Below, piece after piece: positions 10,838 through 46,014 of a stretch of DNA of 64,000 nucleotides (the first letter of the stretch is position 1; each line of letters starts with the position of its first letter). The translations under genes and the position numbers were made by a program. The notes below the pieces were generated by a model. It was not told the origin of the DNA. It saw only the letters and a list, made by a program, of their open reading frames with translations, and searched no databases. This DNA comes from a virus, in IMG/VR virus record IMGVR_UViG_3300005466_000024, positions 96,001 through 160,000 of that record. One strand, written 5' to 3'.

Positions 10838-10978
10838 GGTGTGGGCATCGATAGGTGAGCACCGGGAACCCTTTCGGGCACTTGCTCTGCCAACTGAGCT
10901 ACGGGGCCGGGGCCCCGGCAGGATTCGAACCTGCGACCCAGTGATTAACAGTTAACCGATGTTCGTCCGGCTCACACC
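10838..10978 (-). ncRNA. YrlA-like Y RNA 1 (141 nt), circularly permuted tRNA mimic, Asn-like
   Basis: Terminal stem GGTGTGAGC/GCCCACACC; inside, CTGTTAA, then T arm GCAGG-TTCGAAT-CCTGC, a closed acceptor hairpin, then D arm GCTC-AGTTGGCA-GAGC. Confidence 0.85.
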
Positions 10979-10992
10979 GTCTTCAGTTTTGG

Positions 10993-11128
10993 GGATGCGG
11001 GCATCCATTGGCGCCGACCGGGTTTTAGCGACTTAGGCCACTCGTCCATACCTGTTCCCAGGCAACGGGATTTGAACCCGTGTCTCTCTCTTGCAGGGAG
11101 ATAACCAATCAACTTCCGGCTCGCATCC
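10993..11128 (-). ncRNA. YrlA-like Y RNA 2 (136 nt), circularly permuted tRNA mimic, Cys-like
   Basis: Stem GGATGCGAGC/GCCCGCATCC; CTGCAAG loop; T arm ACGGG-TTCAAAT-CCCGT; acceptor TGCCTG-GGAA-CAGGTA; D arm GAC-GAGTGGCCTAA-GTC. Confidence 0.8.
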
Positions 11129-11138
11129 AACGTTAGGG

Positions 11139-11213
11139 GGTGCAGGCATCCATGTAGTGACTCCCGGGGGGTATCTTCACATTAGATAACCGAGTGTCAT
11201 TCCGGCTTGCACC
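11139..11213 (-). ncRNA. Minimal Y RNA 3 (75 nt)
   Basis: GGTGCAAGCCGGA...CTCGGTTA...ATGGATGCCTGCACC; same motifs and covarying stems, no tRNA domain. Confidence 0.75.
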
Positions 11214-11233
11214 GATATCCAATTCTTGTGCAG

Positions 11234-11303
11234 AGAGCAGGCATCCATAGACGAGACCGAATTTTCGTGGCTGGAAGGTAACCGATCTCATGCGGCTTGC
11301 CCC
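11234..11303 (-). ncRNA. Minimal Y RNA 4 (70 nt)
   Basis: GGGGCAAGCCGCA...ATCGGTTA...ATGGATGCCTGCTCT; second stem TGAGATCG/CGGTCTCG. Confidence 0.7.
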
Positions 11304-11361
11304 CTGTGGCATCGTCGACCTTACTGCTTTCGGTCACCGACCACCAACTTCTTTTCCGCGT

Positions 11362-25710: not shown

Positions 25711-26799
25711 ATGCGGACTCTACTTGCTGTTGCCACACTGTCGGGCGCGATGACCGCCGTGGCGTCCACGTCGGTGGCACTGGCGGCCACCGTCCTCACC
25801 GTGAGCGGCAGCACGTTGCTCGTAAGCACGCCCATGGAGCACGAACTGCAGGGCGCCCTGTGTCGGGCGCCCAACACCTGCGAGAAGGTCGACTACCCGG
25901 CGGGCGGGATCGGTCAGGGCCCCCTGGACCAGGGTGAAGTGGCACTGCAGGACAAGATCGCCGCCACTTCCGGGGATAAGATCGTGATGGCGTACTCCCA
26001 GGGCGGGATCATCGCGACCCAGTGGCTCGAGCAGCACGCCGGCCAACCCGACGCACCACCGGCGAGCGATCTCACGTTCGTGCTGTTCGGCAACCCGCAG
26101 CGCGCCGAAGGAGGGTTGGGCCCCGCGAGCGGTGGGGGACGATCGAACACCCCGACCCCCACCGATACGCCGTACTCGATCGTCGATGTCAGCCGGCAGT
26201 ACGATCTCCTGTCCGACTGGCCCACGGACCCCACCAACGGGCTGGCGGTCGCGAACGCGCTTGCGGGCTACCTCTTCGTCCACACCGACTACACCGGTGT
26301 GGACGTCAATTCGCCGGACAACCTCGTGAAGAAGGTCGGCAACACGACCTACGTACTGGCCCCCACCGCGAACCTGCCGCTTCTGGAGCCACTGCGGCGG
26401 GTCGGTCTGGGCGGTGCGGCCGATGCGCTCAATGCACCGCTGAAGAAGGTGGTGGACGCCGGCTACGACCGCTCGGGGTACGCGCCACTGACTTCGCCCG
26501 TACTGCCGACCGGCAGTGCGGAGACGAGCGTCGCGGCAGTGTCACCAAGGACACCCACTGCCGCATCCGGCATTCACACCGGGTTGACCAAACTCGGTGA
26601 AGCCGCGATTGGAGCGCGCCCGCGCCGTCACCTCAATGCCCAGGTGACGGGGGGCGCTGCACGTCGTGACGTTGCCACGCCACCATCGAACGGCAAGCGC
26701 GCCCACGCAGCGGATGGCGCCCCGGTGAAGGCGGCGGTGCGATCCATCGCGCACGCCCTGTCGAAGCGACAGGGCGGGTCGTTACAGCGGAAGGGCTGA
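25711..26799 (+). CDS. Secreted PE-PPE domain serine hydrolase
   Basis: Signal-like N-terminus; AYSQGG nucleophile elbow, FVLFGNP, YD..SDWP.DP.N.LA.ANA..G....H..Y. Confidence 0.85.
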   Translation: MRTLLAVATLSGAMTAVASTSVALAATVLTVSGSTLLVSTPMEHELQGALCRAPNTCEKVDYPAGGIGQGPLDQGEVALQDKIAATSGDKIVMAYSQGGIIATQWLEQHAGQPDAPPASDLTFVLFGNPQRAEGGLGPASGGGRSNTPTPTDTPYSIVDVSRQYDLLSDWPTDPTNGLAVANALAGYLFVHTDYTGVDVNSPDNLVKKVGNTTYVLAPTANLPLLEPLRRVGLGGAADALNAPLKKVVDAGYDRSGYAPLTSPVLPTGSAETSVAAVSPRTPTAASGIHTGLTKLGEAAIGARPRRHLNAQVTGGAARRDVATPPSNGKRAHAADGAPVKAAVRSIAHALSKRQGGSLQRKG

Positions 26800-45791: not shown

Positions 45792-46014
45792 TGTTCCGAT
45801 GAGAACTCCTGCTAGTCTGCTCCCGTCGGTACCTGACCATCGATGCCCGCGTTGGAAACGAGCCGGACTGGAATCGATATCGCAGCGGTAGCTCAATCGG
45901 TTAGAGCACCCGGACCGCACACACCGGGGGATGTCCGTTCGACTCGGACCTGCTGCCCGACCCTGAATCGTGAGCAGTCTTGTAGGCCAACACTCGGTGA
46001 ACTCATCGGTGACA
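45792..46014 (+). ncRNA. Putative permuted Y RNA: Ro-binding domain (45826..45877) fused to a tRNA-like domain inside long outer stems
   Basis: ATCGATGCCC then GAGCCGGAC with the array's spacing; second stem GGAATCGA/TCGGTACC; outer stems 45808-22/45972-86 and 45796-803/46002-09. Confidence 0.65.
45882..45957 (+). tRNA. tRNA-like cloverleaf with a non-canonical 10-nt anticodon loop; no encoded CCA
   Basis: Acceptor GCAGCGG/CTGCTGC, D arm GCTC/GAGC, stem CCCGG/CCGGG with loop ACCGCACACA, T arm GTCCG-TTCGACT-CGGAC. Confidence 0.75.

Follow-up and report, generated by a model that had tools for sequence, protein, structure and literature searches.

Probable YrlA-type Y RNAs with anticodon-like loops upstream of the Ro60 gene of an uncultured actinophage

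The two tRNA-like units found directly upstream of the rsr gene in the genome of an uncultured 180-kb actinophage are linked to that gene, belong to a known RNA family and have a covarying fold. Judged by comparative sequence analysis, they are very probably Y RNAs of the YrlA type and non-coding partners of the Ro60/Rsr protein whose gene follows them directly. Both belong to the YrlA class without having been annotated, and RNAs of this kind are themselves already known (Chen 2014; Wang 2018). A survey of their relatives suggests that many members of the family carry a full, tRNA-faithful and rapidly switching anticodon loop. The value of following up this work lies in the family-wide pattern of the anticodon arm, the two RNAs themselves being ordinary.

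Background

RNAs encoded beside rsr bind Rsr, and in those of the YrlA type a closed 'acceptor' stem-loop lies between a preceding T arm and a following D arm (Chen et al. 2014, PMC4201824). Further marks of YrlA RNAs are binding to Rsr in vivo and modifications known from tRNA (pseudouridine 55, dihydrouridine). Such RNAs have been found in 254 bacteria and 22 phages, mycobacteriophages among them (PMC4201824). The structure of the Salmonella YrlA module has been solved and is L-shaped; its likeness to permuted tRNA genes and a model of origin from dimeric tRNA were noted at the time (Wang et al. 2018, 10.1101/312249). It has been predicted that an effector binds the tRNA elbow of these molecules.

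A Ro60 gene preceded by four RNA units

The window, by which is meant the whole stretch of 64,000 nucleotides that was analysed, comprises bases 96001-160000 of the 180.7-kb IMG/VR virus record IMGVR_UViG_3300005466_000024 (65.6% G+C). It encodes a phage Ro60 orthologue, the product of rsr (Table 1), with 55% identity to its counterpart in cluster C mycobacteriophages (Bxz1 and others), which is named 'Ro-like RNA binding protein'. The spacer between the rsr open reading frame and the preceding minus-strand gene contains four tandem Y RNA units, all on the minus strand, which follow one another in the direction of reading as unit 4 (11306-11231), unit 3 (11213-11139), unit 2 (11128-10993) and unit 1 (10978-10838). 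The stretch flagged in the initial annotation, 10838-11128, corresponds exactly to units 1 and 2, the last two of the four. They share the strand of rsr and precede it by 28-318 nt, within the distance of about 4 kb used to recognise YrlA genes, and rsr begins 28 nt downstream of unit 1. A scan of the locus for sigma-70-like promoters and terminators found none and was uninformative.

Three motifs recur in all four units: (G/A)AGCCG(G/C)A on the 5' side, GGUUA(A/U/C)C internally and AU(G/C)GAUGCC on the 3' side. The sequence of the terminal helix varies from unit to unit, yet pairing is always kept, with an A.C mismatch at the same place, and P1 covaries among the four. Units 3 and 4 are comparable to YrlB or to the Yrl RNAs of a Thermus phage. 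The Ro60 protein of that phage, phiLo, whose Y RNA genes likewise lie directly upstream of the Ro60 gene, binds two phage Y RNAs (Yrl1 and Yrl2) as well as host PNPase in vitro (PMC12135203). Yrl1 and Yrl2 are described as stem-bulge-stem RNAs with a CGAA motif, no tRNA-like module being reported for them (PMC12135203), and their likeness is to units 3 and 4, not to units 1 and 2.

Ordinary tRNA genes are essentially lacking from the 180.7-kb genome, in which ARAGORN made just two odd calls, one at the extreme end of the contig. The cluster C mycobacteriophages, which are the nearest relatives by Rsr, carry about 33 tRNA genes. The sole tRNA-like gene of the window, at 45882-45957 on the plus strand, has a 7-bp acceptor, normal D and T arms and a 10-nt anticodon loop, ACCGCACACA; ARAGORN reports it as tRNA-??? 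with a 4-base anticodon, and the Rfam tRNA model gives it 48.5 bits in E-value mode, the scan in gathering mode having missed it.

Table 1. Features of the rsr locus, in coordinates of the window
Feature	Position	Strand	Remarks
rsr, phage Ro60 orthologue, 562 aa	9122-10810	-	Pfam TROVE 1.4e-44 and vWA_Ro60 1.5e-52
Unit 1, probable class II YrlA-type Y RNA, closed by P1	10838-10978	-	Rfam YrlA 51.2 bits; R1 model 74.5 bits
Unit 1 P1	10970-10978 with 10838-10846	-	A.C mismatch
Unit 1 Ro-binding-type motif GCCGGACGAA, 5' strand of stalk	10962-10971	-	5' motif common to the four units and homologues
Unit 1 UUAAC and CUGUUAA	10945-10955	-	Conserved kink motif running into Asn-like heptamer (10945-10951)
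Unit 1 trans anticodon stem	10940-10943 (3' strand) with 10879-10882 (5' strand)	-	
Unit 1 variable loop, 5 nt		-	Between 3' strand of anticodon stem and T arm
Unit 1 T arm	10918-10934	-	
Unit 1 closed acceptor	10902-10917	-	16 nt
Unit 1 D arm	10884-10899	-	Preceded by UA
Unit 1 tRNA-like core overall	10879-10943	-	ARAGORN cloverleaf once un-permuted; class II covariation
Unit 1 extra mini-hairpin CCC-GAAA-GGG	10869-10878	-	Also in IMG/VR relative L002
Unit 1 UU, then 3' strand of P2	10860-10865, pairing with 10956-10961	-	Whole stretch with mini-hairpin 10860-10878
Unit 2, probable class I YrlA-type Y RNA	10993-11128	-	R1 model 60.3 bits
Unit 2 P1	11122-11128 with 10993-10999	-	
Unit 2 Ro-type motif GCCGGAAG	11113-11120	-	
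Unit 2 P2	11105-11110 with 11016-11021	-	87.7% paired, compensatory changes (alignment A2)
Unit 2 anticodon-like hairpin UCUC / CCUGCAA / GAGA	11087-11101	-	Slipped alternative UCUCC / CUGCAAG / AGAGA
Unit 2 G43, then 4-nt variable loop	11086 (G43)	-	G11086 pairs in trans with C11028 (27:43)
Unit 2 T arm	11065-11081	-	
Unit 2 acceptor closed by GGAA, then UG	11049-11064	-	
Unit 2 D arm, loop AGUGGCCUA	11030-11046	-	
Unit 2 G26, then C27-U28	11027-11028 (C27-U28)	-	Completes anticodon stem in trans
Unit 2 tRNA-like core besides hairpin	11027-11086	-	
Unit 3, minimal Y RNA, stalk and small tip, no T or D arm	11139-11213	-	5' AGCCGGA, GGUUAUC, 3' AUGGAUGCC, covarying P1
Unit 4, minimal Y RNA, stalk, no T or D arm	11231-11306	-	Motifs and P1 as in unit 3

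Membership of the YrlA family

At Rfam gathering thresholds nothing was found for units 1 and 2. In E-value mode the Rfam YrlA model (RF02553) matched unit 1 over its full length with 51.2 bits (E=1.5e-10), below the gathering threshold of 69 bits, and gave no match to unit 2; every phage homologue tested also fell under this threshold. The model is mostly proteobacterial, and it misses actinobacterial and phage members of the family. A covariance model, R1, was built from 64 actinobacterial and phage homologues with the window left out, and recognised unit 1 with 74.5 bits (E=2e-19) and unit 2 with 60.3 bits (E=3e-15), with no other credible match in the window or in the whole 180-kb genome. 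The likeness perceived in the initial annotation thus goes beyond chance.

Several features characteristic of YrlA are found in both units. In each, a T arm, a loop-closed acceptor stem and a D arm follow one another, with the invariant bases of tRNA and with covariation, the D arm being preceded by UA in unit 1 and by UG in unit 2. The conserved YUAY 5' of the core occurs as GGUUAAC in unit 1 and GGUUAUC in unit 2, and GGUUA is invariant in the alignments of both classes described below (A2 for class I, A3 for class II). Helices P1 and P2 of the stalk are both formed and show covariation, and the stalk motif (GCCGGACGAAC in unit 1, GCCGGAAG in unit 2) is a variant of GNCGAAN0-1G rather than an exact instance. 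The variant of unit 1 contains GACGAA, and its longer form, GCCGGACGAA, resembles the GNCGAA/GGUCCGA motif of PMC4201824. Neither unit is a contiguous cloverleaf with free 5' and 3' acceptor ends and a closed anticodon loop, as a bona fide tRNA gene would be, and cloverleaves are obtained from these units only once they have been un-permuted.

The initial annotation had described two permuted tRNA mimics with anticodon-loop-like sequence. All of the elements that it listed were recovered in place on the minus strand, and the order of anticodon segment, T arm, acceptor hairpin and D arm was confirmed in both units. It might be argued that such a likeness arises by chance or marks decayed tRNA pseudogenes, given that native unit 1 yields no tRNA in ARAGORN and that the Rfam gathering scan is empty. 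This explanation, which now has next to no probability, is already refuted by the comparative data, namely the E-values obtained with the covariance model (1e-15 to 1e-19), the compensatory changes seen in each helix among 24-65 homologues, and a position beside rsr that is fixed in more than 100 loci.

Folding of single sequences favours other structures and was not counted as support. Minimum free energy (MFE) folds did not recover the tRNA-like fold and their z-scores were weak (-1.1 to -2.1); the model structure has -46.2 against an MFE of -56.1 kcal/mol in unit 1, and -31.5 against -52.9 kcal/mol in unit 2, and the thermodynamic ensemble does not reliably leave the loop bases of unit 1 unpaired.

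Annotation of Y RNA genes in phage records

None of the GenBank phage records examined annotates Y RNAs; instead, phage records place small open reading frames, and occasionally a tRNA, over Y RNA genes. In the cluster C mycobacteriophages I3 (L209, 256-670), Essence (L210, 331-670) and Alice (L211, 331-670), whose Y RNAs are unannotated in GenBank, small hypothetical proteins are annotated over the stretch ahead of the Ro gene that holds the three Y RNA genes. Several class I Y RNAs have a 5' part (stalk, hairpin and T arm) that ARAGORN reports as a tRNA (L107:1319-1392, L017, L024 and others), and a 'tRNA-Thr' annotated in the M. abscessus prophage prophiGD43A-5 overlaps the YrlA-like match H3 (26003-26104). 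Y RNAs probably account for some of the tRNAs annotated next to rsr genes. In Gordonia phage Forza, a YrlA-like RNA (L010, 4266-4365) lies downstream of rsr within a tRNA/tmRNA array, between tRNA-Gln and tRNA-Ile, a location that fits the idea of these RNAs arising in tRNA clusters.

Two classes of tRNA-like module

Loci containing rsr were sampled from GenBank phages, 86 IMG/VR contigs and 80 bacterial genomes (mostly Actinomycetota), and 112 tRNA-like units were parsed from them; loci that matched the rsr patterns numbered 317 in IMG/VR and 275 in the GTDB set. The parsed units fall into two classes, I and II, members of which often stand side by side ahead of a single rsr gene. Units 1 and 2 are representatives of these two paralogous classes of a single Y RNA family, which have in common the Ro-binding-type stalk, the UUAYC motif and the T and D arms. 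The same architecture adjoins cellular, chromosomal rsr genes.

Class II contains unit 1 and, by its description, Salmonella YrlA. The five bases that follow the D arm pair in trans with the five that precede the variable loop, and across 24 sequences this anticodon stem is 92% paired with compensatory changes in all five pairs. The class II structure as a whole is 97.4% paired in these 24 sequences, compared with 68.6% in shuffles that ignore kinship. Most members extend the anticodon stem as a helix, with UAYCU..GGA opposite UCC. Unit 1 and its relative L002 differ from these in keeping an unpaired (C/U)UGUUAA and in the addition of the CCC-GAAA-GGG mini-hairpin.

Among the members of class I are unit 2, the YrlA of M. 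smegmatis and many relatives from actinobacteria and actinophages. After GGUUAYC they have a hairpin of 3-5 bp capped by a 7-nt loop, then a spacer of 4-5 nt (RGGUY) and the T arm. The published 5' probe for M. smegmatis YrlA, UUACCA-CUUCUAA-UGG, corresponds to this hairpin. The two bases after the hairpin (42 and 43 in tRNA numbering) pair with the two bases that follow position 26 behind the D stem (28 and 27, respectively). Both 27:43 and 28:42 are formed in 64 of 73 distinct class I units, against 17.3+-2.9 in shuffled controls (0/2000 reaching this value, kinship ignored). The first is C:G in 42 units, G:C in 20, U:A in 3 and A:U in 2, and the second is U:A in 28, C:G in 19 and G:C in 15. 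RNAalifold applied to the MAFFT alignment missed the hairpin on account of register gaps, so pairs were counted explicitly; on that alignment the trans pairs are 88.5% paired, with AU, GC, CG and GU types. The helices of class I are 94% paired overall, versus 74-76% in shuffles (0/500, kinship ignored).

In the published model of YrlA, the hairpin before the T arm is mapped as the variable arm and P2 as the anticodon stem. This mapping was considered for class I and rejected: the strand order agrees with it, but the 5-nt RGGUY spacer, the frame of the loop and the covarying 27:43 and 28:42 pairs do not. The covariation points instead to a 5-bp anticodon stem, three pairs in cis and two in trans, with a 7-nt loop and a 5-nt variable loop. 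As read from the alignments, the class I module is a full cloverleaf from which the stalk branches off between positions 28 and 29; its point of entry in class II is between 31 and 32. The heptamer CUGUUAA of unit 1 would then lie on the 5' side of an open junction, and unit 2 would present a closed 7-nt loop on its 5-bp stem.

Identity of the anticodon-like sequences

The initial annotation read the anticodon-like loops as Asn GTT in unit 1 and Cys GCA in unit 2. This was borne out in part by un-permuting, in which the 5' half, from the 5' strand of the acceptor to that of the anticodon stem, was joined ahead of the 3' half. ARAGORN then recognised unit 1 as a tRNA-Asn(gtt) cloverleaf whose acceptor, D stem and T stem measure 7, 4 and 5 bp. 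From unit 2 in its native order ARAGORN gave a degenerate 63-nt tRNA-Cys(gca) call at a relaxed threshold, and at the same threshold the un-permuted unit gave a tRNA-Cys(gca) cloverleaf. The GCA reading is dependent on register, since the stem of unit 2 can slip owing to the repeated GAGAGAGA. The pair G11086:C11028 is possible only in the register UCUC/CCUGCAA/GAGA, which also fits the 4-nt AGAC spacer of the closest relatives; in the CUGCAAG register this pair is lost and a C.A mismatch is incurred. The covarying trans pairs therefore favour a loop in which positions 34-36 read UGC instead of GCA and position 33 is C.

The further proposal that the two units descend from two different tRNAs, those for Asn and Cys, finds no support, because the triplets turn over among orthologues and so do not mark parents; the units are paralogous classes of one family. 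As to unit 1, the C-U of CUGUUAA belongs to the family-wide UAYCU motif, the relatives in alignment A3 having UAYCU..GGA at this site. Recent descent from tRNA-Asn was considered in view of BLAST matches between unit 1 and tRNA-Asn genes (88-94% over 36-46 nt) and rejected, as these arise because they cover only the heptamer and the generic variable loop and T arm common to YrlAs. The 16-nt acceptor of unit 1 was likewise rejected as a tRNA-dimer junction, 14-20 nt being the family norm. The anticodon-like part is thus, on comparative grounds, a conserved and fast-changing feature of the family and not the remnant of two particular tRNAs.

The statement that a closed acceptor cannot be aminoacylated is unsafe, as M. 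smegmatis YrlA, a member of class I, is opened by RNase P and CCA-tailed in vivo (PMC4201824). This processing invites the view that the units are precursors of working tRNAs, which after RNase P opening, CCA addition and charging, or after re-joining of the algal type, would supply tRNA-Asn or tRNA-Cys/Ala to a phage with almost no tRNA genes. The lack of an ordinary tRNA gene in the genome and the clean tRNA-Asn cloverleaf of un-permuted unit 1, with its 7-bp acceptor, would agree with such a role. It is nevertheless very unlikely. The stalk remains attached inside the anticodon arm, and unit 1 lacks a closed anticodon loop; acceptor lengths vary from 4 to 12 bp across the family, and stop-reading triplets are present. 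Moreover, an enzyme that would excise the stalk and ligate the ends is not known in bacteria (10.1101/312249). The permuted tRNA genes of red algae and some archaea, cited in the same source, likewise have a loop-closed acceptor and ends in the anticodon arm; their precursors are spliced and ligated to ordinary tRNAs, whereas the ends of units 1 and 2 continue into a conserved Ro-type stalk. Maturation of a permuted pre-tRNA would call for excision and ligation at the anticodon arm, guided by a bulge-helix-bulge or equivalent signal. This stalk argues for a stable RNA. Partial mimicry of tRNA outside ordinary decoding is also seen in tmRNA and viral tRNA-like structures, but these have a free CCA end that is aminoacylated, and neither a Ro-binding stalk nor a link to rsr.

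Frame and turnover of the class I loops

When the register is fixed by stem pairing alone, 64 class I loops show a common frame, with C32 in 55, U33 in 60, variable bases at 34-36, a purine at 37 in 60, and A38 in 56 or C38 in 8. The expectation of the initial annotation that the loops be conserved and single-stranded was borne out to this extent: the frame is kept across the family, and the class I loop is closed and unpaired in the comparative model. Positions outside the triplet are coupled to it. G37 accompanies G36 in 16 of 17 loops and occurs otherwise in 3 of 61 (p=9e-13 for the class I loops of loci L002-L173, kinship ignored), and this coupling extends over seven of the eight triplet types ending in G36. 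C38 goes with the triplets GUC, UUC and CUC, and A34 is scarce, being found in 3 of 78 loops, two of which read ACG. For comparison, 51 tRNAs were taken from one actinobacterium that also has YrlA; in these, G36 is always accompanied by G37, and the Asp, Glu and Val loops end in C38. Exact heptamers of real tRNAs of this one organism with the same triplet were found for 32 of 54 YrlA loops, compared with 19.5+-2.2 for shuffled frames (0/5000, kinship ignored). We know of no structural reason for the G36-G37 or C38 couplings.

The triplet changes rapidly within this frame. In 12 pairs of units from loci 87-95% identical as a whole, 47% of triplet sites differ, while the other ~95 aligned bases differ by 3% on average. 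L114 and L129 are identical but for CUGCAAA versus CUGUAAA, and L164 and L165 but for CUCCUAA versus CUCGAAA; L138 and L142 differ by 4.8% elsewhere and have the loops CUGUCAA and CUACGGA. Cluster C1 phages are divided as well: Bxz1, I3 and Essence have the loop AUUGCAA, Alice and Shifa AUUGAAA. The relatives of unit 2 read GCA (Cashline), GCU (BearBQ, L025), GCG (L020, L023) and UGC or UGA (cluster C). Anticodons that are in use are not enriched among YrlA triplets (84% versus 82% expected from base composition), and the stop-reading triplets UCA and UUA occur.

Three readings of this pattern may be considered. It may be that the loop is a structural filler or relic without a reader, which need only fold as a U-turn for the L-shape to form, the middle three bases being left to drift. 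We hold this possible, with low confidence. A loop needed solely for its U-turn would be expected to keep its frame and vary in the middle, S. Typhimurium YrlA works without an anticodon loop, which it is said to lack (10.1101/312249), and most class II units pair this region into a helix. Free drift leaves unexplained, however, the G36-G37 coupling, the association of C38 with GUC, UUC and CUC, the excess of exact matches to real loops and the scarcity of A34, and the divergence of the triplet at loci so similar exceeds a plausible neutral rate.

According to a second reading, which goes back to the initial annotation, the Y RNA would act as a decoy or sentinel that displays the anticodon loop of a specific tRNA, so that a nuclease of the VapC, MazF or PrrC type, or a loop-modifying enzyme, binds or cuts the Y RNA instead of, or as well as, the tRNA; Rsr with nuclease or ligase partners would then act on the outcome. 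Such a role, compatible with Y RNA identity, accords with the copying of real anticodon loops down to isoacceptor-specific bases at 37 and 38, and with triplet switching far faster than change in the rest of the RNA, as conflict would produce. Actinobacterial hosts have many tRNA-cutting toxins, which cluster C1 mycobacteriophages, themselves carriers of Rsr and YrlA, have been proposed to counter (PMC10264068), and the rsr operon of Salmonella responds to damaged tRNAs (PMC7790460). We nonetheless regard this role as unlikely. The architecture is equally present beside chromosomal rsr genes and is not, as such, a phage counter-defence; used anticodons are not enriched and stop-reading triplets are included; and the open loop of unit 1 and the loop of unit 2, which lacks U33, would be poor copies of those of tRNA-Asn and tRNA-Cys.

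A third and tentative reading is that the class I hairpin formerly assigned to the variable arm is a complete anticodon stem-loop, which copies a specific cellular tRNA as far as positions 37 and 38, that its triplet may be under diversifying selection, and that the effector may read anticodon loops. The copying of real anticodon loops together with the very fast switching of the triplet fits a partner that reads the anticodon loop.

Proposed mechanism and implications

In characterised Y RNAs, the stalk with the Ro-type motif is the part bound by Ro60. By analogy with these relatives, the units may be regarded as having two modules. The first would be the stalk, composed of P1, an internal loop with GCCGGA(A/C)G, and P2, which is expected to hold the RNA on the Rsr ring. 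The second would be the tRNA-like effector module, a circularly permuted cloverleaf with a loop-closed acceptor stem, the chain ends of which leave through the anticodon arm. Its tRNA shape may recruit a partner that binds tRNA or degrades or repairs RNA, host PNPase being the documented example, and the phage might thereby redirect RNA decay or repair in infection. In class I, we infer, the anticodon-like loop may serve as a functional copy of a real anticodon loop that is read by some partner.

Should class I loops indeed be read, the candidate readers would be an anticodon nuclease or toxin, an enzyme that modifies the anticodon loop, or a synthetase acting after RNase P and CCA processing. 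This provides a concrete handle: swapping the triplet should alter the partner or the phenotype, and across genomes the YrlA triplets can be set against the tRNA-targeting toxins present. Ro60-Y RNA particles would, if this is true, be tuned to particular tRNAs.
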